Shown: piece after piece, positions 20,921-55,234 of the stretch
Layout of the letters: every line of letters begins with the position of its first letter
Position numbering within the stretch: position 1 is the stretch's first letter
Source of the DNA: Eubacteriales bacterium
Lineage (GTDB): Bacteria > Bacillota > Clostridia > Oscillospirales > CAG-272
DNA: 55,234 nt
Reading direction: 5' to 3'
Assembly (NCBI GenBank): GCA_045606685.1
Contig: JAZUSJ010000140.1
Coordinates: forward strand, 1-55,234
The notes under the pieces: generated by a model
What the model saw: the letters and a program-made list of their open reading frames with translations, nothing else
Told to the model about the DNA's origin: nothing
Database searches by the model: none
Position numbers and translations under genes: made by a program

Positions 20921-20954
20921 AAAACGCGGCAACTGATTTTCTTGAAGGGGAGAA

Positions 20955-21254
20955 GTGATTTTCTTGAATGAAAACGAAGCCATGCAGACGATGGCAGAGG
21001 GGATATGGCAATATCTGAAGCCGAAGATCGAGCGCATGACGGCGCGGAACGTGTCGTATTTCCGCGCAACAGTGACGGCAGCGGCGGCGGACGGGAAGAT
21101 TGCCGTGCGAAAGCCGCGGGAAAACAAGGACATTTTGCTCCCTTATGTGACCTCGGCGGCGGGGCTTGCCGTGGGAGATCAATGCACCGTTTTGGTGTTC
21201 GGCAGCGCAAGCAACGCCTTTATCGTGGGGGACGGGACGCTTTCGGGACTGTAA
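20955..21254 (+). CDS. Hypothetical protein (start ambiguous: GTG 20955 or ATG 20968/20982)
   Basis: Last rightward ORF before the strand switch; C-terminus GLAVGDQCTVLVFGSASNAFIVGDG. Confidence 0.45.
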   Translation: MIFLNENEAMQTMAEGIWQYLKPKIERMTARNVSYFRATVTAAAADGKIAVRKPRENKDILLPYVTSAAGLAVGDQCTVLVFGSASNAFIVGDGTLSGL

Positions 21255-21286
21255 AAAAACTTTGCGAAAGGCTTTATTTTCAACTC

Positions 21287-21455
21287 ATTTTCTTGTAGAA
21301 TAAAAATGTCATGAGATGATTGCCACTCAGCCTCCATGATTACTTTTTTCGGAGAAACGCCCTGTGCGAAAGCGCGGGGCGTTTCTCTGTCTGCGAATGA
21401 TGGGGAAAAGAAAAAGCCCCCTGGATGGGGGCGATGGATTTTCTTGTAGAATAAA
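21287..21455. repeat. 18-bp perfect direct repeat ATTTTCTTGTAGAATAAA (21287-21304 and 21438-21455) bracketing a hairpin/terminator segment
   Basis: Exact match read from the sequence; 151-bp period. Confidence 0.9.
21402..21432 (-). terminator. Rho-independent terminator of the leftward operon
   Basis: On the - strand: GCCCCC-ATCCA-GGGGGC followed by TTTTTCTTTTCC, 26 nt after the HTH gene stop. Confidence 0.75.
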
Positions 21456-21457
21456 GG

Positions 21458-22012
21458 TCAAGAGTCGGACAGAATCGACATGACGTCGAGCATGGCGGCG
21501 CGGCTCGGGCTTATGGGCTGCACTTCTTCTGCGATTTTTATGGCTTCTCGCATAAAATTGAAAATCGACAAACCGTTTTTTTCATCCATGCAAGCATTCA
21601 GCGCGCGCATGGCCCTTTCAAAGTTTCTTGAAATCAGCAGCGCTTCACAAGCCTGTTTGTATTGCTGCTTGTGCAGAACGACCACAGCCGATTCCGACAG
21701 TCCGGTATATGCCATCACCGCGTTTTTGTCCCCGTTCAAGTTTTGCAGATTGTTCATCCCGATCAGATAGTCAGCAGATACATCAAGCACGGCTGCAATC
21801 CGCGCAAGGTTTTCCGTATTTGGCTTGTTTACTCCGTTCGTATAACCGGCGATCGTCTGGCGCTGAATCTTTCCATATCGTTCTGTGATTTTGTTTGCAA
21901 GTGAAACCTGTGTTTCTCCGCGCCGCTTCATCAGTTCCCGCAAGCGAACGGCAAAAATGTTGGGTTTCGTTTCAAAAGGCATATTTTTTTCAAAAGGAAT
22001 GTTTTCTTTCAT
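21458..22012 (-). CDS. XRE-family helix-turn-helix regulator with C-terminal domain
   Basis: GGAGGAAATT-ATG. HTH segment FAVRLRELMKRRGETQVSLANKITERYGKIQRQTIAGYTNGVNKPNTENLARIAAVLDVSADYLIG. Confidence 0.8.
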   Translation of the reverse strand: MKENIPFEKNMPFETKPNIFAVRLRELMKRRGETQVSLANKITERYGKIQRQTIAGYTNGVNKPNTENLARIAAVLDVSADYLIGMNNLQNLNGDKNAVMAYTGLSESAVVVLHKQQYKQACEALLISRNFERAMRALNACMDEKNGLSIFNFMREAIKIAEEVQPISPSRAAMLDVMSILSDS

Positions 22013-22055
22013 AATTTCCTCCAACTGCAAAAGGCAGAATTGATTTTCTTGATAT

Positions 22056-22097
22056 GCCCGTGTTTTGCGCCGGAATCGCGCAGGACGGGCTTTTTTC
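22056..22097 (+). terminator. Rightward-reading (antisense to the operon) stem-loop plus T-tract
   Basis: GCCCGT...TGCGC-cggaatc-GCGCA...ACGGGC followed by TTTTTTC on the + strand; there is no U-tract in the - sense. Confidence 0.55.
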
Positions 22098-22178
22098 TTG
22101 TATGACCGTTTTCACGGCGCGGACGCAAATCGGCAAGCCTGAACGGGAAACGGCGGAAAAATCGGCATTGCTGACGGA

Positions 22179-23216
22179 TCAGCACATGGACGAAACGATT
22201 TTTTTGATGCTTTCGTTCGCGGCGGCGGCGGCGGCAAATACGGCGCGGGTATCCTCCATCTGCTTCCTTGCCGTGAGCCGGTCGGAATAGATTTGCGTGG
22301 TGGACGGGTTGGAATGGCCCAGCTCGCCCTGAAGCAGCTCCAGCGAGACGCCGGATCGAAGCTGGAGGCGGGCAAACACGTGCCGCAGATCGTGGGTGCG
22401 GACATTCTTTACGCCTGTGACGTCGTAAACATGGCGCTCCACAAGCGCGGAAAGCCACTGACTTGTGCCGCGGTGAAACGGGACAACTGATTTTCTTGAT
22501 GTTTCGGGATCGGCCTTGTTGATGGATTGCCACCCCTTCGGACAGGTGGTGCCGAAAAGGGGCAGATCGTCCGACGCGTCCAGAGGCCGGATGCCGGAGC
22601 GCAGGTAGGCGGTGAGCGCGGAAACGGCGATCTCGGGCAGATCGACGGTGCGGAACTTTCCGCCCTTGCCGCTCTCTACTGTGAGCAGCCGGTTATGGAA
22701 ATCAACGTGGGCCAGATCAAGGTCAAGCAGCTCGGAATTGCGGATGCCCGTGGATAAAAGCAGGATGATGATGGCATAATTCCGCAGGCGGTTTGTGCCG
22801 CGGGCGCGGTCGTCGTCCGGGAAGGCGAACAGCTTCGCGGCCTGCTCGTTGGTCAGAATCTCGTCATAAGGGCGTTTCTTGATTTTCGGGTAGAGCTTTT
22901 TGCTGACGATGTTTCTTGAATAAAAGCGCATTTCGCCCAGGGTGCGGTCGGTGATGGTGGAATAAAAGCACTCCAGATTGACAAGATATTGCCGGACGGT
23001 GGCGGGGGAAGTCCCTTTCTTGATAAGCTCGTCCCGCCAGGCGATCACGTCTTTGATAGTGGGATCGGCGGCGGCGCCGGTGGTCTGCTGCCAAAAATCG
23101 CAGAAGCGCCGGATGGTGGATTCATAATTTCTTGCCGTGTGGGGGGAAACCTCCGTTGCGCTGAGGTTGTTCAGATAAAAGGCTTTTGCCGCCGCATATT
23201 TATCCAGTGGGGTCAT
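22179..23216 (-). CDS. Tyrosine recombinase, XerC/XerD-like (second recombinase of the phage)
   Basis: SAM-like N-terminal domain; catalytic motifs GIRNSELLDLDL (Arg), HDLRHVFARL (HxxR) and LGHSNPSTTQIYSD (His, Tyr). Confidence 0.85.
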   Translation of the reverse strand: MTPLDKYAAAKAFYLNNLSATEVSPHTARNYESTIRRFCDFWQQTTGAAADPTIKDVIAWRDELIKKGTSPATVRQYLVNLECFYSTITDRTLGEMRFYSRNIVSKKLYPKIKKRPYDEILTNEQAAKLFAFPDDDRARGTNRLRNYAIIILLLSTGIRNSELLDLDLAHVDFHNRLLTVESGKGGKFRTVDLPEIAVSALTAYLRSGIRPLDASDDLPLFGTTCPKGWQSINKADPETSRKSVVPFHRGTSQWLSALVERHVYDVTGVKNVRTHDLRHVFARLQLRSGVSLELLQGELGHSNPSTTQIYSDRLTARKQMEDTRAVFAAAAAANESIKKIVSSMC

Positions 23217-23275
23217 TTCGCTTGCCTCCTATTGATTTTCTTGATACCTTCGTGAACTCCAGGACGGGGGATGGA

Positions 23276-23776
23276 TCAGGCGTCAAGCGCCTGAAGGTAC
23301 TGATTCGCGGCGTCGGTAAGACGATCCACGATGGCCATAAAGTCAGCGTCTTCCGGGGATTCCTTGCTGTAATAGTCGCCGATGTCGTAATTGCCGGGCG
23401 CGCCGAAGTATTCCGCCTCGTCTTTGATCGTGTAAGCAAAAGTCTTGTCTGCGCCGGCGCTCGTCGGCATGATTTTCCCGTCGTTGGTGATGTGCAGATA
23501 ATAGGTGACGCCGCCCGCTGCCTCGTCATACTCGGCGCTGCAATTCTCGCAAAGGGCGCTGAAAACCTCGTCACTCATAAGCTTCTTTTCTTGATGCCAA
23601 TCCATGGCCAGATCGTCGTAAAAATAGAGGGTGCCGTCGATCAGGACGTCCGCGTCGCCGGGATTTTCCGGTGTGATGATCTCGCCGACAAGATTGATCG
23701 CCTCGTCCAGCGTCATGGCGTGATTCGTGATGATCTCGGCAACGGTTTCATTCGTGATAGTGTTGATGATCTTCAT
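23276..23776 (-). CDS. Hypothetical acidic protein (166 aa)
   Basis: TTGGAGGTACAAAAAA-ATG, preceded by a CAAGAAAAT box. Confidence 0.6.
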   Translation of the reverse strand: MKIINTITNETVAEIITNHAMTLDEAINLVGEIITPENPGDADVLIDGTLYFYDDLAMDWHQEKKLMSDEVFSALCENCSAEYDEAAGGVTYYLHITNDGKIMPTSAGADKTFAYTIKDEAEYFGAPGNYDIGDYYSKESPEDADFMAIVDRLTDAANQYLQALDA

Positions 23777-23836
23777 TTTTTTGTACCTCCAACTTATTTT
23801 CTTGTAGTGTATAATTTTATTTTATCATTCTTCGAT

Positions 23837-24016
23837 TTAAGATTCAACGGTTTCTTTTCGCGGCGGGCTGAAGCGAATGAACTCGCAGCCGTGCGGGATC
23901 TTCTTTTTTGCGGCCTCGGCTGATTCGGCCATCACGCAATAGCACATTTCTTGATGCTTTCCGTTTTTCAGCAGCATGATCCAGGGCTTCTCCGTGACGT
24001 TTTTCTTCAGATTCAT
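23837..24016 (-). CDS. Small hypothetical protein (59 aa), not in the ORF track
   Basis: Own translation: MNLKKNVTEKPWIMLLKNGKHQEMCYCVMAESAEAAKKKIPHGCEFIRFSPPRKETVES. AAAGGAGC SD; the ATG overlaps a CAAGAAAAT box. Confidence 0.5.
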   Translation of the reverse strand: MNLKKNVTEKPWIMLLKNGKHQEMCYCVMAESAEAAKKKIPHGCEFIRFSPPRKETVES

Positions 24017-24038
24017 TTTCTTGTATTATGCTCCTTTC

Positions 24039-24383
24039 TCACCATTTCATGTCGATCCCCGGCGCGGGGTTTCCGTCGTACCAGACGCGGCGGAAAATAT
24101 CGGTCAACAGATCGTCGGACTCGTCCTCGGTGCCGTTTTTGTCAAAAAACAGGGTGTAATATGCACCGTCAACCGGAAAGCCGCGGGAAATGATGCTGTA
24201 TTCGTTTCCGTCCTCCGTTTCAAACACAACAAGGTTTCCGGCGGATGATTTTACCCAGCCGCACTCGATGCGGATAAAGTCATTTTGCGGATTGCGGGCC
24301 GTTTTTGCCGGTTTCCCGCAGCCGGAAGCGGTCAGCAGGAGCGCCGCGGCGAAAATGGCCGGAATGATTTTCTTGTTATTCAT
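24039..24383 (-). CDS. Putative secreted lipoprotein (114 aa)
   Basis: Signal peptide MNNKKIIPAIFAAALLLTASGC with a lipobox-like TASGC; GGAGGTGAGCGACGA-ATG. Confidence 0.6.
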   Translation of the reverse strand: MNNKKIIPAIFAAALLLTASGCGKPAKTARNPQNDFIRIECGWVKSSAGNLVVFETEDGNEYSIISRGFPVDGAYYTLFFDKNGTEDESDDLLTDIFRRVWYDGNPAPGIDMKW

Positions 24384-24646
24384 TCGTCGCTCACCTCCGC
24401 AAACTTGCGCAAAAATGGGATCATTTCTTCCGGGATATCACAACAGGCCACGATTGCACCGTCACGCGGGAACAGATCAACAATCGGAATGTTTGTAAAT
24501 CCCTCAAATGCCATGATCCGATTGACCAGGGGCGCGAGCAGCGGATTTTTTCTGCAATCATCATATGCGGATGCGATCAGCACGGGGACGCCGAAATTAT
24601 AACCGGCCTGTCGAAGCTGCCCTAAAGTGATTTTCTTGTTATCCAT
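24380..24646 (-). CDS. Hypothetical protein (88 aa)
   Basis: ATGA overlap with the downstream lipoprotein gene; codons 3-6 are a CAAGAAAAT box. Confidence 0.55.
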   Translation of the reverse strand: MDNKKITLGQLRQAGYNFGVPVLIASAYDDCRKNPLLAPLVNRIMAFEGFTNIPIVDLFPRDGAIVACCDIPEEMIPFLRKFAEVSDE

Positions 24647-24683
24647 GAGATTTTCCCCTCCTGTTTTGATTATAATTCGCCTG

Positions 24684-25073
24684 TCAAGTGGCGATTCGGT
24701 CTGCTATATAATCCCGCCGTAATGCGTCAGCTTCTGCAATAACTGGATTCAATACGTCAAGCGTCAAGCCGTACTTTTCAAAATACTTTTTTAATTGCTG
24801 GCTGCTGGCCTCATAACGTGCGCCGTATTCGTCCCGGATCGCCGTATTTGCAAAATCAAGAAACGCCTCCCAAATAATAGAAGAAGTTTTCCGCCGTTTA
24901 TTCATCAAGGCATTATATAAACGGCTTTTCCCGCCTCCGGCGTTTTCATTTCTCCAGACAATATCAAGTTGCATAAATATTTGTTCATTCAAATATCCTG
25001 CGTTTAATTTGCCGTTCCCAGTGTTCAAGAAATAAGAATCAAGCGCATTAAATGTAATGTTCTGATTTGTCAT
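24684..25073 (-). CDS. Hypothetical protein (129 aa), visibly AT-richer than its neighbours
   Basis: AAGGAGGTTATTGCA-ATG; start chosen inside track ORF 24684..25094. Confidence 0.55.
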   Translation of the reverse strand: MTNQNITFNALDSYFLNTGNGKLNAGYLNEQIFMQLDIVWRNENAGGGKSRLYNALMNKRRKTSSIIWEAFLDFANTAIRDEYGARYEASSQQLKKYFEKYGLTLDVLNPVIAEADALRRDYIADRIAT

Positions 25074-25106
25074 TGCAATAACCTCCTTTTTCAAGTGGCG
25101 ATCCGG

Positions 25107-25388
25107 TCAGCAGATGCAATTTTCTTTGAACTCGGACAGCAGCCCGAAACGGCGCCCGGCCGCGGCGAAAAAGTCTTGAATTGCGAAAATCTCCGCATAT
25201 GATAGGCCGTCGGTATCCATCCCAGAATATTCAATCGCAAGATCCCGCAAGGCGTTTTTCTTTTCTTGATACGTCCGGCCGCTGACTGCGAGCTTCAGAA
25301 CGTTTTCCGCGTCAATCGGTAAATCCTTCATCCGGCGGAAAAGGCCCGCCGTTTTCTTGCCGTGTTCGGTGTAGTTCGCAAGGATCAT
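25107..25388 (-). CDS. Hypothetical protein (93 aa)
   Basis: ATGGAGGTACAAAAA-ATG; start chosen inside track ORF 25107..25469. Confidence 0.55.
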   Translation of the reverse strand: MILANYTEHGKKTAGLFRRMKDLPIDAENVLKLAVSGRTYQEKKNALRDLAIEYSGMDTDGLSYAEIFAIQDFFAAAGRRFGLLSEFKENCIC

Positions 25389-25453
25389 TTTTTGTACCTC
25401 CATATCGTTTTGTTGTTGCGTGGGCCGGTTATTCCCGGCCCGCCGCCTTGTAT

Positions 25454-26143
25454 TTATGCAACTTCCCATTCATACTCGGTGACAGTTTTTTGCCCGCTGA
25501 TCGTCAGCAGCTCCGTTTCTTCTTCCGGGAGACCTTCCCACCCGCAAATCAGCTTTTTGACGTCTTCCGGCCGCCATGCCTCACAATCGGCCACGATAAA
25601 GCCGTAGCAGGTTTCAATCTCTTCTCCGTCTTCATCCAGATCGGCAACGGAATATTCCGTTGCAGCGCCCAACCAGACCTCGCCATACTTTTTCACGCCT
25701 TCCGGGTATGCGTCCTTGCAATAAACCATTTCGCAATAATCGCCTTGCGAATAACCGCGGGCCGATTCAACCGCCCAGGGCTTTTTTGTTGTAATGGTCA
25801 AATATTTAGCAACGTCTTCCGGCTCTGCTACATCCGCATTTTTTGCCCATTCCTTTAGCTTGTGACATTTCGTCGGGCTGTAGTCGATCCTGAGACTTTC
25901 CATAGCTTCTTTGTAACTGGAAAACGCATTCCAGCGGCCGACGTCAGAAAAACAGTCGATCAGATTTTCCGCTTCGCGCTGAATATCTTCATAGATATCC
26001 GCGTTGAAACCGCGTGTTTCCCGCGTCGGTACGATGAAAAGCGTATTGCAAAAATCGCCGCTTTCGGGCTTCAGTCCGTCATCGTCAAAATAATAATTAA
26101 AATCAGCCATTTCCGCGGGGACTTGCTTGATCCTGTACTTCAT
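25454..26143 (-). CDS. Hypothetical acidic protein (229 aa)
   Basis: CAAGAAAAT-AGGAGGTTCAAAAA-ATG; D/E-rich sequence. Confidence 0.6.
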   Translation of the reverse strand: MKYRIKQVPAEMADFNYYFDDDGLKPESGDFCNTLFIVPTRETRGFNADIYEDIQREAENLIDCFSDVGRWNAFSSYKEAMESLRIDYSPTKCHKLKEWAKNADVAEPEDVAKYLTITTKKPWAVESARGYSQGDYCEMVYCKDAYPEGVKKYGEVWLGAATEYSVADLDEDGEEIETCYGFIVADCEAWRPEDVKKLICGWEGLPEEETELLTISGQKTVTEYEWEVA

Positions 26144-26169
26144 TTTTTGAACCTCCTATTTTCTTGATA

Positions 26170-26310
26170 TTACAGATTTTTTAGAAACTTCCCGAGCGGT
26201 TGCACTTGTTCTCCGCTCAGCTTAACCGCGGCCCAGACGCAGACGCCGAAAACCGGATAGCCGATCCCCAGCAGCGCACAAAGGCCGATCATTAAAAATA
26301 ATGCTCCCAT
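26170..26310 (-). CDS. Small membrane protein (46 aa), not in the ORF track
   Basis: Own translation: MGALFLMIGLCALLGIGYPVFGVCVWAAVKLSGEQVQPLGKFLKNL. GGGGGGA SD. Confidence 0.45.
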   Translation of the reverse strand: MGALFLMIGLCALLGIGYPVFGVCVWAAVKLSGEQVQPLGKFLKNL

Positions 26311-26414
26311 GCAATCCCCCCACAAATGATTTTTTTGTTGCAACCTCCCGCCGCTATTGCAGCGGGAACGCTCCCGGCCTAATGCCTGTTTACCCCCGCC
26401 GGGACGGGCTGTTG

Positions 26415-26888
26415 TTATTCCTCGCTTTCCTCGTCTGCCTCTTCCAGCGCGTCAAATAGCGCCGCAAGCTCGCTGTTATCGTCGATCGAATAAATATCGC
26501 TTCTGTTTTCGCTCATGCTTTCGACCGCGTAACGATCCAGAAAAGCGGAATAGTCTTTATGGTCAGCCGAAACAAGATGTCCATAGCCGCTAAACCTGAA
26601 GTATTTGCGGTTAGGGTTGAACGCGCCGCATGCCTTATGTCCGCTGATGTCAGTCGTCCATGTTTCCTCGTCGTATCCATAAAAAGCGCGGAATAAAATC
26701 TCGCTCGGCTTTGCTTCGCTGTCTACCTCGTCAATTCCTTTCATGAAATAATACTTATCGTTTCCAAGATATTCGTTGCAGCCGTCCAATTCTTCAATGC
26801 AGTCGTTGAAAACGTCCTCATTTTTCCGGAAATACTCAATAATTGCGTCGATTGCCGCTTCTCTCGTGGTGTTTTTGGTGGTCTTCAT
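26415..26888 (-). CDS. Hypothetical protein with acidic tail (157 aa)
   Basis: CAAGAAAATAAAT-AGGAGGAAAAGAAAA-ATG. Start chosen inside track ORF 26415..26966. C-terminus LFDALEEADEESEE. Confidence 0.6.
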   Translation of the reverse strand: MKTTKNTTREAAIDAIIEYFRKNEDVFNDCIEELDGCNEYLGNDKYYFMKGIDEVDSEAKPSEILFRAFYGYDEETWTTDISGHKACGAFNPNRKYFRFSGYGHLVSADHKDYSAFLDRYAVESMSENRSDIYSIDDNSELAALFDALEEADEESEE

Positions 26889-26941
26889 TTTTCTTTTCCT
26901 CCTATTTATTTTCTTGTTACCTCGTGACCTCCGGCGCAGTC

Positions 26942-27910: not shown

Positions 27911-27960
27911 TTTTCGCTGCCTCCTGTTTTTTCGTTCGGTTTATTTCCTTTTGTGATTAT

Positions 27961-28056
27961 AGTATAGCAGATAGCTGTACAACTGTAAATAGCAACATTG
28001 CACAAAGATAGTTGTACAATTATATTTTGTTTTGTGTATATTGTACAACTGTAAAT
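27961..28056. promoter_or_regulatory. Divergent promoter/operator region with three TTGTACAA-centred operators
   Basis: TGTACAACTGTAAAT occurs exactly at 27976-27990 and 28042-28056, and the palindrome TTGTACAA at 28012-28019. Leftward promoter: TTTACA (27984-27989 rc), 17 nt, TATACT (27961-27966 rc). Rightward promoter: TTGCAC (27998-28003), 17 nt, TATATT (28021-28026). Confidence 0.7.
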
Positions 28057-28068
28057 GGGGGTTTTAAT

Positions 28069-28347
28069 ATGGCAAAAAATAGCAAAGCAAAGCAGGCGGC
28101 AACGGCGCGATATTTTAATAGAACATATGTTCGTTTTGGTCTCGTTGTCATCCCGTCGGAAATGGACAAAATCAGACAAGCCGCCGCCGCCGCTGGTCAA
28201 TCCGTCAACGCTTATATTTTGACAGCTACAGCCCGCAGAATGGCCGCAGAGGGCTACGAGCTTATCACCACTGTTTCCGCGCTCAAAGCACAGCAGAGCG
28301 CAGCAGAGGCCCCAGGAGAGGCCAAACAGCCGACCACGGAAGAATAG
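28069..28347 (+). CDS. Ribbon-helix-helix (Arc/Mnt/CopG-like) repressor candidate
   Basis: The beta-strand plus two-helix pattern TYVRFGLVVIPSEMDKIRQAAAAAGQSVNAYILTATARRMA; it is adjacent to the palindromic operators. Confidence 0.65.
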   Translation: MAKNSKAKQAATARYFNRTYVRFGLVVIPSEMDKIRQAAAAAGQSVNAYILTATARRMAAEGYELITTVSALKAQQSAAEAPGEAKQPTTEE

Positions 28348-28366
28348 CCGATCCCAGCGCCACAAA

Positions 28367-28406
28367 AGCCCGCCCGAGCTGAAAAAGCCCGAGCGGGCTT
28401 TATTTT
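28367..28406 (+). terminator. Rho-independent terminator after the RHH gene
   Basis: AGCCCGC...GCGGGCT stem followed by TTTATTTT. Confidence 0.8.
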
Positions 28407-28414
28407 GCCCTGAA

Positions 28415-28546
28415 ACGCCCTATACGCCCCAAACGCCCCCGCCGGGAATACCCATCCCATAATTGCACGCGCTCCCGCGTATACGCGCGCAAACAACGCC
28501 AACACGCCCGCCCGCAGTCTGTAACACTGTATAAACGCCCACGCCC
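28415..28546 (+). repeat. C-rich, G-poor tract with six ACGCCC repeats and a 12-bp palindrome
   Basis: ACGCCC starts at 28415, 28424, 28433 (9-bp period), 28504, 28535 and 28541; CGCGTATACGCG lies at 28476-28487. Confidence 0.85.
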
Positions 28547-28649
28547 CCGGCCCGCGTTTCTCGTCGCTCCCGCCCGCGATTTATCCGGGTGCGGTCTACT
28601 GTACTATATCACCATCTACCCAAGAAAATGCACTAAAGCGGTATACAAT

Positions 28650-28929
28650 AGGGAATGGGTGGGACGCTTACCCGGTGCCCGATATGGACAAGGCCGCCAC
28701 CGTTGGCCAGTGCTGACCGTTTCACCCGTCCGGGCATCCTGGAGCCGTTGCGGGCCGTTGCCGCTTCCAGTCTTGCGATTATGTGTAATAATCACAATAG
28801 TAAGAGCGGTTCAGCCGATACCCGCCCCCCCCCGGTTTACAGTTGGGATCGCTGTTTCTTTGCGCTTTATTCGGTATGCTCTTCCTCTTTTACAGATATC
28901 CCTTACGCCGTAGAGGCGTTATTTTTTTA
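28650..28929 (+). ncRNA. Candidate structured non-coding transcript (family unknown)
   Basis: A -10-like TACAAT at 28644-28649, a GC-rich region with many complementary segments, a C9 tract at 28825-28833, and an ACGCC-gtaga-GGCGT + T7 terminator at its end. No SD-led ORF is present. Confidence 0.3.
28903..28929 (+). terminator. Short stem-loop plus long T-tract
   Basis: ACGCC-GTAGA-GGCGT followed by TTATTTTTTT. Confidence 0.55.
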
Positions 28930-29011
28930 CGCATTTTGTGGGGTGGCGAAAATGCACTTGACATGGTATGTTATGCTGATGCCAACGATGAAAGGAGCGT
29001 GAGGCGTTGTA

Positions 29012-29464
29012 ATGGCGAGGGCAAAGAACAGCAACGTCAAGGTTATTGGTAACGTAGAGAGACTTGCGCGTACTGCCGGACTGAGTTACGGGCAGATGGT
29101 AGCGCAGATGAAGGATTCCGGTGATTCTGGAGAGGTATTTCGGAAATGCAAGTGGTGTTACAAGGCGGCGAAGAAGAACAGCGAGTTTTGTTCACGGGCT
29201 TGTCGGAGTGCGTACAAGGCGCAGGAGAAGATTGATTTAGAGCTTGCGGGGAAATACCGGAGGCGGAGCGGTGAAGTCATTGACGTTAGTGCTTGGAGCG
29301 CGATGTTAAACCGTGGCAAGGGAGACAAGTGCATATTCTGCGGGAAGCCGATACCGAAGGGGAGCAACCGTTTTTACTATTGCAGTGCGGAGTGTTCTGT
29401 TTTGGCGCGGCAATTTGGAGTAGACCCTGGCAATTGGAAGAAGAAAGCCGGGGTGAAGGAATAG
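29012..29464 (+). CDS. Zinc-ribbon protein with two FCS-like Cys motifs
   Basis: GAAAGGAG SD; motifs CKWCYK...FCSRACRSAY and CIFCGK...YYCSAECS. Confidence 0.6.
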   Translation: MARAKNSNVKVIGNVERLARTAGLSYGQMVAQMKDSGDSGEVFRKCKWCYKAAKKNSEFCSRACRSAYKAQEKIDLELAGKYRRRSGEVIDVSAWSAMLNRGKGDKCIFCGKPIPKGSNRFYYCSAECSVLARQFGVDPGNWKKKAGVKE

Positions 29465-30151
29465 ATGCTGATGACGAGGCGAGAGAGGGCAAAGAGGCGG
29501 AGGCAAAAACTGATTTTCAATTTTCTGCGCTTCGCGCTTACATTGAGCGTGATCTATTTCTGCATTTTATCCTTTTTCACATGGGAATCTCCCTCAACGC
29601 CATTTTTTTGGACGGATTCGGGGCAATTTGAGGCGAACGGATGTTCTGCCGAGTGTTTGCCCGCCTGCACCAAAAAACCCGCTAAAACGCAATCTGACGC
29701 AAATAACGAGGTAAAGGAGAACTGGCCCATGCTTGACGCGATGATCGAAGACACCTACCTGTGCGCTGACGTACCGTTGGAGTACGACTTACAGAGAGAC
29801 CTATACGGGGCGTGTTTAGAGAGCGGTTTGGAATATGCTGTTGCTTTGGGCGTCATTGAGCAGGAAACGCGGTTTAAGAACGTATCCGGTGACAGCGGTG
29901 CATCTGTTGGGTATATGCAGATTCAAGAGAAGTGGCACAAGGGGCGGATGGAGAAACTGGGCGTAACGGATTTATTTGATCCTGTCGGCAATTTCCGTGT
30001 GGGCTGCGACTATCTGGCTGAGTGTATTGGGAAATACGGCTTAGAGCGCGGCTTGTGCTGTTACAATTCCGGGCGGCCCGGTGAGAGCCGATACAGCAGA
30101 GAGGCCATGGAACGGATTGAAAAGTGGAGGGACGTTATAGGATGGCGTTAA
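29465..30151 (+). CDS. Membrane-anchored lytic transglycosylase (SLT domain)
   Basis: N-terminal TM helix (LTLSVIYFCILSFF). SLT motifs VIEQETRF (catalytic Glu), SVGYMQI and CCYNSG. Confidence 0.75.
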   Translation: MLMTRRERAKRRRQKLIFNFLRFALTLSVIYFCILSFFTWESPSTPFFWTDSGQFEANGCSAECLPACTKKPAKTQSDANNEVKENWPMLDAMIEDTYLCADVPLEYDLQRDLYGACLESGLEYAVALGVIEQETRFKNVSGDSGASVGYMQIQEKWHKGRMEKLGVTDLFDPVGNFRVGCDYLAECIGKYGLERGLCCYNSGRPGESRYSREAMERIEKWRDVIGWR

Positions 30152-38702: not shown

Positions 38703-39866
38703 TTGCAAAAGAGCTACAAGACAGAACTCGCACCCACGAATGAGCAAGCGGAACAGATACGTCGCACGGTCGGCGTCTGCCGCTATGTTTACAACAGTTT
38801 TCTTGCTACGAACGCCGAGCGCCACAAGAACGGCGAAAAATTCATGACCGGCATGGACTTCTCCAAATGGCTGAATAATGAGTTCGTTCCGCAGAACCCC
38901 GACAAGACATGGATCAAGGAAGTCAGCAGTAAATCGGTCAAGAAAGCCATCATGGACGCTGATGGCGCGTACAAGCGTTTCTTCAAGGGGCTTGCGCGGT
39001 TTCCGCGATTCAAGCGAAAGGGCGTCAACGATCCGAAGATGTATTTTGTCAAGAACGACGAGAAAGCAGTCATTCGCTGCGAGAGACACAGGATCAAGAT
39101 ACCGACGCTCGGCTGGGTTCGGCTCAAAGAATACGGGTATCTCCCAACGGACGGGAGCATCAAGAGCGGGACGATATCTATTCACGCCGGACGGTACTTT
39201 GTGTCGGTGCTTGCAGAAGTTCCCGACACCGCGCCGCAGGAACCTCAAACGGACGGCGTCGGCATTGACCTCGGCATCAAAGCGTTCGCAACGGTCAGCG
39301 ACAAAACGACCTATAAGAACATTAACAAGACGGACGAGGTACGGCGGCTCGAAAAGAAACTCCACCGCGAACAGCGCAGGCTTTCGAGGAAGTACGAAAG
39401 TCTGAAACAAAGAAACAAAACTATGAAAGGAGAGGCTACTCGACAGAATATCCAAAAGCAACAGCTAAAGGTGCAGAGAATCTACTACCGTTTAGACTGC
39501 ATCAGAACCGATTACATCAACAAGGCGATTGCGGAAACGGTGAAAACCAAGCCGGAGTACATAGCAATCGAAAACTTGAACGTAAGCGGTATGATGAAGA
39601 ACCGGCATCTTTCAAAGGCTGTGGCAAGTCAGAAGTTTTCGGAGTTCCGGGTAAAGCTGACAGCGAAATGCCGCGAGTACGGGATGGAGCTTCGGATTGT
39701 GGATAGGTGGTATCCATCTTCTAAGACCTGCCACAACTGCGGGTGCATTAAGAAAGACCTTAAACTTAAAGACCGCGTGTTCAAATGTAAGTGCGGTTAC
39801 GAGGCGGACAGGGATTTCAACGCGGCGCTAAACTTGAGAGATTCGGGGTGCTACACGGTGGCTTAA
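38703..39866 (+). CDS. tnpB: TnpB RNA-guided nuclease (RuvC-like, OrfB zinc ribbon)
   Basis: RuvC-I GIDLGIK, RuvC-II IAIENLN, RuvC-III ADRDFNAALN; zinc ribbon CHNCGC...CKCG; TTG start 8 nt after GGAGGA. Confidence 0.9.
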   Translation: MQKSYKTELAPTNEQAEQIRRTVGVCRYVYNSFLATNAERHKNGEKFMTGMDFSKWLNNEFVPQNPDKTWIKEVSSKSVKKAIMDADGAYKRFFKGLARFPRFKRKGVNDPKMYFVKNDEKAVIRCERHRIKIPTLGWVRLKEYGYLPTDGSIKSGTISIHAGRYFVSVLAEVPDTAPQEPQTDGVGIDLGIKAFATVSDKTTYKNINKTDEVRRLEKKLHREQRRLSRKYESLKQRNKTMKGEATRQNIQKQQLKVQRIYYRLDCIRTDYINKAIAETVKTKPEYIAIENLNVSGMMKNRHLSKAVASQKFSEFRVKLTAKCREYGMELRIVDRWYPSSKTCHNCGCIKKDLKLKDRVFKCKCGYEADRDFNAALNLRDSGCYTVA

Positions 39867-39986
39867 ATAGACCTCATGTACCGATGGCTAATCGGGAATT
39901 TACGCCTGTGGACTGTGCAAAAACTTGTGAGTAGCGACCGACTCGTCGGAGCGAAAGCACACAGAGTGAAGCAGGAACTTTCTCGG
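39750..39986 (+). ncRNA. Candidate omega RNA (reRNA) scaffold overlapping the tnpB 3' end and the downstream region
   Basis: By analogy with characterised TnpB loci. The region 39867-39986 has several complementary segments (CTGTGC...GCACACAG, CGAC...GTCG). The boundaries are guessed. Confidence 0.35.
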
Positions 39987-50157: not shown

Positions 50158-50232
50158 CGCAGGGTAGAGCAGAGGCAGCTCGCCACGCTCCTTACGTGGA
50201 GGTCGCCAGTTCAATTCTGGCCCCTGCACCCA
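50158..50232 (+). tRNA. tRNA-like gene, anticodon CCU (Arg), with encoded CCA and atypical positions
   Basis: Manual cloverleaf: acceptor CGCAGGG/CCCTGCA (C1-A72 mismatch), D arm GAGC-AGAGGCA-GCTC, anticodon arm CCACG-CTCCTTA-CGTGG, variable loop AGGTC, T arm GCCAG-TTCAATT-CTGGC, then C-CCA. Confidence 0.6.
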
Positions 50233-54467: not shown

Positions 54468-55190
54468 ATGGCAACGACCTGGCAGGACATCGTGACAGAC
54501 AGCGCGATGGTGATAATCGACGACGTGCGGCTTGCGGACGAACTGACGGCTTCGCCTGCGCGGTTTTTCCGCAAAATGAGCCTTTACGTCAAGGAGGCGC
54601 TGCCGATGATGTGCAGGCCCCCCGAGCTTTTGACGCGGCTGAAATCCGGCATGACGGAGCCGCAATTTACTTCGCTGGAATGGGTTTCGACAGAGGAAAG
54701 CACCGGGCAGGAGGTTTCTGTTCCGACAGACTTTCCCAACGCCGAGATCGTTTCGATTGTCCGACGCATCACGGGCAATAACGGAATCGTGACCGAAACC
54801 GTTTACACAGACGCCGCTTATGATGCGGAAACAGGCGTCGTGACGTTCCCCGTCCAACAGAGCGTTGGTGAAGAGTACGAAATCGACCTTTACATTGACG
54901 GGGACTTTTCCTTTGATTTGAGCGCCACGCAGATGCGTCTTTTCGGCATGGCTGTGGCGATCGTATGGGATGAGAGGCAGGAACGGAACTGGCTGAACAT
55001 TCAGCCGAAGATCCAGGACAGCAGTTTCAAGACGGTAAACGAGGCAAATTACATCCGTGCGGCGCAGGAGCGGCTACGCATGAACAGGGCGGCCTTTAAC
55101 GACGAGGCGCGGAAATATGAGCAGGACGTGGCGTATCACTCCACCGTTTCCAGCGTATATCAGAGCCACCAGATCAAGAATCTTATCTGA
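54468..55190 (+). CDS. Hypothetical head-tail joining module protein (240 aa)
   Basis: GAAGGAGGGG SD; its 3' end lies in the 141-bp terminal overlap. Confidence 0.5.
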   Translation: MATTWQDIVTDSAMVIIDDVRLADELTASPARFFRKMSLYVKEALPMMCRPPELLTRLKSGMTEPQFTSLEWVSTEESTGQEVSVPTDFPNAEIVSIVRRITGNNGIVTETVYTDAAYDAETGVVTFPVQQSVGEEYEIDLYIDGDFSFDLSATQMRLFGMAVAIVWDERQERNWLNIQPKIQDSSFKTVNEANYIRAAQERLRMNRAAFNDEARKYEQDVAYHSTVSSVYQSHQIKNLI

Positions 55191-55234
55191 AGGGGCCGGT
55201 GATCCCACATGGCAGACAAAAACATCGGAAACGC
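55094..55234. repeat. Second copy of the 141-bp terminal overlap
   Basis: Identical to 1-141. Confidence 0.97.

Follow-up and report, generated by a model that had tools for sequence, protein, structure and literature searches.

In phage lambda, the cro–nutR–tR1 interval places a Rho-dependent terminator with rut sites between a small repressor gene and the replication genes. Here, we describe a non-coding block (28348-29011) that occupies a comparable position in a phage from the cattle rumen, related sequence of which is present in bovine gut metagenomes. Coordinates refer to the window, which is the whole stretch of 55,234 nucleotides that was analysed (contig JAZUSJ010000140.1) and which represents an entire phage genome of about 55.1 kb, assembled as a circle, the window ends overlapping. 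The block lies between a gene for a ribbon-helix-helix (RHH) protein and a gene for a zinc-ribbon protein that begins the replication operon. We read it tentatively, as a nearly even call, as a DNA-level insulator and control region between the RHH unit and the replication operon, possibly with a rut-like Rho back-up. The layout resembles that of lambda in that an interval without genes, with termination signals and a C-rich, G-poor stretch, lies between a small repressor-type gene and the replication genes. However, an intrinsic terminator comes first in the block, which is also several times longer than the lambda interval; the replication operon has a putative promoter of its own, neither a nut/boxB-like element nor an antiterminator gene was identified in this phage, and a role of Rho is putative.

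In lactococcal Ceduovirus (c2-type) phages, the replication origin is a non-coding region that separates the first early promoter from the second and makes the non-coding transcript PE1-T, and the ori types differ most in the sequence between these two promoters (PMC7150918). The block shares with this system a lineage-variable, non-coding region of several hundred bp, without an open reading frame (ORF) or a ribosome-binding site (RBS), between promoter-like elements that head early or replication genes, and it may likewise give a non-coding transcript. In contrast, the two share no sequence similarity, and the block is rich in GC, with a weak, putative upstream promoter and putative origin activity. 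Moreover, c2 origins replicate without phage proteins, whereas this phage encodes an initiator and a loader. The ROOL and GOLLD RNAs (PMC5737381; bioRxiv 10.1101/2024.12.08.627333) are similar to the block in being intergenic, hundreds of nt long and carried by phages of rumen or Clostridia-type hosts, but the block has no Rfam match, no thermodynamic signal and no covariation. Finally, the linkers at module junctions of mosaic phages, represented in this phage family by the CAAGAAAAT box, are also found at borders between mosaic and conserved segments and kept in relatives, and one CAAGAAAAT copy lies in the block. However, this copy is not conserved, 660 bp stand against a 9-mer, and no gene gain or loss is seen at the block.

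A non-coding block kept in all known relatives

The block is a real non-coding element that is kept in all known relatives. Fourteen variants were compared, namely the window and 13 further distinct versions of the interval from rumen-metagenome contigs carrying homologues of the zinc-ribbon or RHH protein. The gene-free block stands between the RHH and zinc-ribbon genes in 14 of 14, with a length of 656-673 bp, as obtained by subtracting about 100 bp of flanking gene sequence from aligned spans of 757-774 bp. Between the window and its relatives, the block is about 85% identical and the zinc-ribbon protein is 97% identical. ORFs within the block vary from relative to relative, no ORF is conserved among the variants, and indels of 1, 2 and 3 nt disrupt every frame. 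Variable sites are distributed evenly over the codon phases (30/32/32 at 28651-28905 and 28/27/23 in the C-rich tract), and scans of seven ORF translations against Pfam and PHROGs gave no meaningful match. Gene callers place no gene within the block in the relatives, save one 69-aa antisense ORF that overlaps the end of the RHH gene in L018. The ORF comparison, the codon-phase test and the family scans together rule out a coding block. The view of the sequence-only reading, an earlier annotation made from the letters of this DNA, that the ORFs here are not genes is thereby upheld, and no relative carries an ordinary, intact protein-coding gene at this position.

Intrinsic terminators stand near both ends of the block. 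T1 (28363-28406, + strand), the terminator of the RHH gene, has a GC-rich stem of 16 bp, a loop of 5 nt and, after the hairpin, TTTATTTTG. Its hairpin folds with -23.6 kcal/mol (z = -4.4) on the + strand and -32.0 kcal/mol (z = -6.0) on the - strand; the T-run is present on the + side in 14 of 14 variants and on the - side in 6 of 14, and the outer G-C pair is exchanged for A-T in relatives, which is a compensatory change. T2 (28905-28929) is oriented on the + strand only and has a 5-bp stem followed by T7, 40 nt ahead of the replication-operon promoter. The stem of T2 is kept in all relatives while its loop varies in length and sequence, and T2 was found independently in L011, L023 and L026. 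Both T1 and T2 thus combine a GC-rich hairpin, a directly following U-run and conservation, as an intrinsic terminator should, and the stem-loop plus T7 that had been seen to close this part of the block is confirmed.

Downstream of T2 lies the predicted promoter of the operon for the zinc-ribbon protein, the SLT transglycosylase and the replication proteins (28958-28977, + strand), with TTGACA at 28958-28963 and the extended -10 element TATG-T-TATGCT at 28967-28977. In 14 of 14 variants, the motif TGTTATGCT (28969-28977), an extended -10 element with TA in front of it, stands about 35 nt upstream of the zinc-ribbon start codon; the RBS GAGG (29001-29004) and the ATG (29012) of this gene follow on the + strand. 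We infer promoter function from the extended -10 element, and the spacing between the -35 and -10 elements is non-canonical. Upstream of the promoter, the inverted repeat GCATTTT-N11-AAAATGC (28931-28955) is a partly conserved candidate operator; its right arm reads AAAAAGC in 8 of 14 variants, and its GAAAATGCACT recurs at 28624-28634. A scan of the window and three relatives found no two-hexamer sigma-70 promoter within the block. The TACAAT hexamer at 28644-28649, which had been described as -10-like, is indeed present and is kept in 12 of 14 variants. On the - strand, two motifs resemble an extended -10 element, one at 28534 in 13 of 14 variants and one at 28611 in 7 of 14. A CAAGAAAAT box does lie where it had been reported (28621-28629), but it is not conserved, the relatives reading CCAAAAAAT, CCAGAAAAG or unrelated sequence.

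Between T1 and the centre of the block, the + strand runs through a C-rich, G-poor tract (28404-28580; 45% C, 20% G), again as noted before, and the most C-skewed 177-nt segment of the 55-kb genome starts at 28398. The C-richness is kept in 14 of 14 variants, with a GC skew of -0.30 to -0.41, though the left third of the tract evolves fast. The rut criterion of RhoTermPredict asks for at least 78 nt with more C than G, that is, a C/G threshold of 1 (PMC6407284). The tract has this composition: its best 78-nt segment has a C/G ratio of 2.75, and only 1.3% of the + strand segments reach 2. Over 197 nt, the minimum free energy (MFE) is -47.8 kcal/mol on the + strand versus -74.1 kcal/mol on the - strand; the + strand of the tract folds poorly, yet its value is close to that of its own shuffles. 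The rut-like Rho site that had been proposed here is thus a candidate with support from its composition only.

The tract also holds all six exact ACGCCC copies previously listed (28415, 28424, 28433, 28504, 28535 and 28541). Three AAACGCCC-type units with a 9-bp period (28413-28438, + strand) lie in a fast-evolving segment (diversity 0.226); this triplet is only partly kept in relatives, and L032 has no exact ACGCCC core at all. The three units are spanned on the - strand by a strict G-quadruplex motif (28408-28440), defined by four tracts of at least three G residues with loops of 1-7 nt. A G-quadruplex-like motif is therefore present as described, but only in the window and L018, and it is missing from 12 of 14 variants. 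In the same way, the C9 run at 28825-28833 exists but is interrupted in 13 of 13 relatives (C3-5, another base, C5-7), so that it is specific to the window.

Uneven conservation and lack of an RNA-structure signal

Conservation along the block is uneven. The mean pairwise diversity of the block is 0.138, and the corresponding values at third codon positions are 0.24 in the 3' half of the RHH gene and 0.07-0.09 in the three genes to the right. Diversity is highest, about 0.23, at 28404-28460 (0.226) and in the variable centre at 28581-28650 (0.234), and it reaches 0.17 at 28651-28740 and 28776-28850. The variable centre is less GC-rich (41% GC) and comes in at least four unrelated alleles, which at 28596-28650 do not track the RHH alleles. 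Between these segments, three conserved islands hold significantly fewer variable columns than their neighbours. Island i (28461-28580; diversity 0.12) varies in 40 of 120 columns as against 60% in both neighbours (Fisher p about 0.001) and contains the invariant palindrome CGCGTATACGCG, two copies of CGCTCCCGC, and CGCCCGCCCGCAGTCT. Island ii (28741-28775; 0.06, or 0.057 unrounded), which reads GGAGCCGTTGCGGGCCGTTGCCGC, varies in 6 of 35 columns (p = 0.0005 and 0.01 against its two neighbours) and carries GCCGTTGC twice, 10 nt apart, within an imperfect inverted repeat CTGGAG/CTCCAG. Diversity is likewise low, at 0.04-0.07, over 28851-29011, where island iii (28851-28900; 0.073, p = 0.01) comprises the 27-nt invariant TTTGCGCTTTATTCGGTATGCTCTTCC (28859-28885) and a C/T-rich stretch right before T2.

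Two palindromes stand out in the block. The 12-bp palindrome CGCGTATACGCG (28476-28487), which the sequence-only reading had pointed out, is present and invariant across the relatives; simple arithmetic predicts about 13 palindromes of 12 bp per 55 kb, and it is the invariance that is notable. The second is a 25-bp palindrome, TTGCGATTAT-N5-ATAATCACAA (28773-28797), with conserved arms and a 5-nt spacer that varies. Its hairpin has a z-score of -4.45 on the - strand and -1.9 on the + strand, and it is a candidate site for a dimeric DNA-binding protein. The exact motif TTGYGATTAT occurs three times in the genome (about 0.2 expected by arithmetic), always within 850 bp around the RHH gene: two copies form the arms of the palindrome, and the third (27951-27960), conserved throughout the relatives, overlaps the -10 element of the promoter that serves the leftward operon. 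Two other assignments were tried and rejected. An allele-specific RHH operator was considered at TTTACAGTTG (28836-28845), which agrees with the window's RHH operator at 10 of 15 positions, yet it is constant while RHH alleles and operators differ. CI operators were considered as well; the cI-cro region carries a different repeat.

The earlier proposal of a structured phage non-coding RNA is not borne out, as Rfam, fold z-scores, the structure conservation index and pair counts all give no signal. A covariance-model search against Rfam 15, which includes ROOL, GOLLD, riboswitches, ribozymes and CRISPR repeats, matched no RNA family in the block at the gathering threshold; Pistol (26339) and RAGATH-18 (39905-39977) matches lie elsewhere in the window. 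Even at E ≤ 10, the matches within 28200-29150 are nothing but terminator look-alikes at T1. Relative to dinucleotide shuffles, the MFE has z = +0.54 (+ strand) and -1.43 (- strand) for 28652-28930, and z = +0.45 (+ strand) and +0.23 (- strand) for 28404-28600. The many mutually complementary segments that had been seen at 28650-28900 are no more frequent than by chance, with a fold energy equal to that of shuffles, and the helices picked out by hand (TGCCCG/CGGGCA, CAGCCGAT.../GGGATCGCTG and GGGTG/CACCC) are each broken without compensation in some relatives. Sliding consensus folds (alifold) on both strands give a structure conservation index of 0.2-0.8 and a covariance term of about 0. At 28640-28935 on the + strand, 0 of 60 consensus pairs show a compensatory change, and the covariation score is below that of 488 of 500 shuffles. 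At 28355-28640 on the - strand, there is a weak signal: three pairs are doubly changed, including one in T1, and 4 of 500 shuffles attain the score. Relatedness alone can give such a signal. None of the public sequencing runs holds the block as RNA. Since the islands are conserved in primary sequence, with neither covariation nor coding, they probably represent signals read on DNA or as simple RNA hairpins.

Possible insulation and control of the replication operon

The reading of the block as an insulator and control region can be put as follows. Rightward transcripts from the RHH promoter would end at the strong terminator T1. Any read-through RNA would then cross about 180 nt of C-rich, G-poor, poorly folding sequence with rut-like composition. 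T2 would stop leftover transcripts as well as those begun inside the block, and the replication operon would initiate 40 nt past T2 from its own invariant extended -10 promoter. The 12-bp palindrome, the GCCGTTGC pair, the 25-bp palindrome and the 27-nt block may be sites where phage or host proteins set the state of the promoter region. We infer the action of Rho, the binding of proteins and the identity of these proteins. If this assignment is correct, the block represents normal phage regulation, in which terminators, a promoter and regulator sites keep the replication genes silent until they are needed. This would help the annotation of the rumen phage family and would imply that intergenic blocks can be long, GC-rich and structured-looking without being RNA genes. 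Furthermore, the islands and the palindrome common to the leftward promoter would be concrete candidate sites for a regulator linking the accessory and replication operons.

Several points weigh against this assignment. A length of 660 bp is long for an insulator, and rut-like composition is very unspecific. In addition, the tract lies after a strong intrinsic terminator, so that little RNA may reach it. Asymmetry between G and C of this size is normal for coding strands in this genome, the - strand of the tract having a value of 0.40, within their range, and the tract could stem from a leftward gene that has since decayed. A large part of the block may be close to neutral, as its diversity falls between the silent-site values of its flanks. 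Finally, the runs that were found through the neighbouring genes probably contain DNA because contigs of more than 50 kb are present in them, and a true RNA run of the same sample has no reads.

A possible neutral relic or transcription-dependent origin

Among the alternatives, the one that survives best is that the block is a mostly neutral relic of one or more decayed small genes, including a leftward one with a G-rich coding strand. Only the terminators and the replication-operon promoter would then be functional, and the rest would drift, serving at most as homology for module exchange. We regard this as unlikely, though it fits the diversity of the variable segments and the strand asymmetry. 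The - strand asymmetry at 28404-28580 is in the coding-strand range, about half of the block has a diversity equal to that of RHH silent sites, indels are frequent, the block sits at the border between the mosaic left arm and the conserved right arm, and many assemblies break in it. However, drift does not readily explain why islands i and ii are significantly more conserved than both of their neighbours, why two palindromes are kept with variable spacers, or why the length of the block is constant over the 14 variants. Furthermore, the ORF fragments match no protein family, and no relative has retained an intact gene here.

A replication origin or iteron field was also among the earlier suggestions. 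Iteron origins carry several conserved direct repeats, typically of 17-22 bp, that are helically phased and lie beside an AT-rich unwinding element. The ACGCCC repeats offer 6-8 nt cores (6 nt for ACGCCC itself) with a 9-bp period in a fast-evolving segment and are partly lost in relatives, and the block is 56-62% GC with no AT-rich unwinding stretch, which leaves the iteron suggestion weak. A GC-skew minimum was rejected as an origin marker because the skew follows gene direction.

A transcription-dependent origin like that of phage c2 is a different proposal and, in our judgement, a rather improbable one. From a weak promoter (TACAAT, 28644), about 270 nt of non-coding RNA would be made as far as T2; this RNA or the repeats around it would trigger replication, and the replication genes would be expressed from the next promoter. 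In a variant of this proposal, a G-rich leftward transcript through 28596-28404 would be an R-loop primer. The layout is c2-like in that a non-coding stretch lies between two promoter-like boxes (PMC7150918), and the block is directly upstream of an operon with an initiator and a DnaC-like loader. Both -10 elements are preceded by GAAAATGCACT...GGTAT, TACAAT is kept in 12 of 14 variants, T2 is conserved, several short direct and inverted repeats lie in the block, and the - strand has the extended -10-like motifs at 28534 and 28611. On the other hand, the block is about 60% GC and has no AT-rich unwinding element, and its repeats are short and partly unconserved. The promoter scan did not detect the TACAAT promoter, which lacks a -35 element, and most relatives have a divergent first GAAAATGCACT box. 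An initiator is encoded by the phage itself, and a 28%-GC stretch with phased repeats within the initiator gene is a more typical origin. The block also lacks similarity to any phage or plasmid record. The fuller version, in which a GC-rich transcription-dependent origin (with either the c2-like transcript from about 28657 to T2 or the leftward R-loop primer) has its palindromes bound by the zinc-ribbon protein, is slightly less probable again. If it were true, phages of Oscillospiraceae-like hosts would have a type of origin so far undescribed for them, and a block with origin activity would provide a handle for vectors for poorly tractable rumen Clostridia.

Possible regulatory RNAs and recombination sites

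The block might encode one or two regulatory RNAs that act by base-pairing and have no conserved fold. For example, a + strand RNA from about 28657 to T2 would have a C/U-rich 3' part (CTCTTCC(C/T)C...CCC) that could mask Shine-Dalgarno sequences. The conserved, + strand-only T2 has no gene ahead of it, the -10-like element is conserved, and T2 is directly preceded by the 27-nt invariant stretch and by a C-rich one; pairing RNAs are also compatible with the absence of a conserved fold. Nevertheless, we give this possibility little credence, because the scan found no canonical promoter and none of the public runs holds the block as RNA. Complementarity elsewhere in the phage genome is not significant, the best matches being 12-13 nt with E ≥ 0.45, so that antisense targets within the phage genome were rejected as not above chance. 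Moreover, silent sites in the genes to the right are just as little diverse as the sequence near T2, and selection is therefore not required to explain the low diversity there.

It is highly improbable that the 25-bp palindrome (28773-28797) is the core of an att/dif-type recombination site, because, although conserved 10-bp inverted arms around a 5-nt spacer that differs by lineage are the pattern of a recombinase core, the integrase is 6.5 kb away, the half-site recurs at a promoter -10 element, which suits a regulator better, no relative shows a prophage junction here, and the other recombinase, to which the earlier att-site suggestion had pointed and for which no support was found, is a TnpB-like transposase 10 kb away.

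Neighbouring genes and relatives

The RHH gene (28069-28347, rightward) on the left of the block encodes 92 aa with a weak NikA-like Pfam match and a match to phrog_13890. Its homologues are 59-88% identical, and its left flank comprises a divergent promoter region and a leftward accessory operon. The N-terminal approximately 30 residues of the RHH protein exist in at least five alleles (window 27911-28150; L003, L013, L023 and L025-L031), and operator-like repeats in the divergent promoter region change along with them. Across relatives, neither the C-terminal two thirds of the protein nor the leftward -10 element (TATAATCACAA) varies. Judged from these sequences, the joint change of the N-terminus and the operators suggests swappable immunity specificities.

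The zinc-ribbon gene (29012-29464, rightward) on the right encodes 150 aa, and its product belongs to a single 90% cluster with 39 members. It is followed in the replication operon by genes for the SLT transglycosylase, the initiator (phrog_270), a DNA methyltransferase, the DnaC-like loader and a MazF-like toxin. In some relatives (L013-L017), an extra gene for a 466-aa SNF2-family helicase stands between the initiator and methyltransferase genes; it is found neither in L003-L012 nor in the window. The SLT gene (window 29465-30151) also differs within the family (L003, L006 and L007 versus L004, L008 and L009): in some relatives it is called as 226 aa starting a few nt past the zinc-ribbon gene, and in others the call is 140 aa long and a gap of 265 bp precedes it. 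Part of the family may thus have a disrupted or differently started membrane anchor at the N-terminus of the SLT protein.

The block lies where a left arm that is highly mosaic meets a conserved right arm. Searches of phage and plasmid collections gave no match to block-like DNA. In IMG/VR, queried with the flanking proteins and two conserved DNA words, an SLT relative (L001) without the block was found, and the lone DNA match, which lies within a coding region, is due to chance. A scan of metagenomes and genomes with the RHH alignment returned distant RHH genes only (39-63% identity; human-gut and Oscillospiraceae contigs), and a profile search found no homology to the block there. L034 was rejected as a relative: its RHH gene adjoins a sugar transferase gene and is read as a host gene. 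Faecalibacterium phage Lagaffe has the C-terminal domain of the initiator in common but has no such spacer, and it was set aside as well.

Metagenome assemblies often break within the block or at its edge (L002, L007, L008, L012, L016, L017, L021, L025, L027, L029 and L030). These breaks occur at many different positions, which fits mixtures of strains that differ in the variable segments better than it fits a fixed genome end. In the window itself, positions 1-141 are exactly identical to 55094-55234. This 141-bp terminal overlap indicates a circular assembly and is probably an assembler k-mer overlap.

Further features lie outside the block. The CAAGAAAAT box has 15 copies in the window against 0.9 expected, at 20936-26916 (- strand) and at 28621 and 45142 (+ strand). 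Thirteen copies are on the - strand within the leftward operon, often directly before an RBS and often after a TA-rich, -10-like sequence. Between two genes of that operon, a Pistol ribozyme match at 26339-26409 (- strand) scores 64.9 bits against a gathering score of 34.5. At 38703-39977 (+ strand), a RAGATH-18 match (63.9 bits) lies 39 nt downstream of a gene for a 387-aa TnpB/IS605-type transposase (phrog_506, E = 1.6e-115). From its sequence, this pair looks like a transposon-type nuclease with an adjacent RNA inside the early recombination operon, which encodes RecE-like, RecT-like and SSB proteins. The late region carries a tRNA-Arg gene (anticodon CCT) at 50158-50232 (+ strand).

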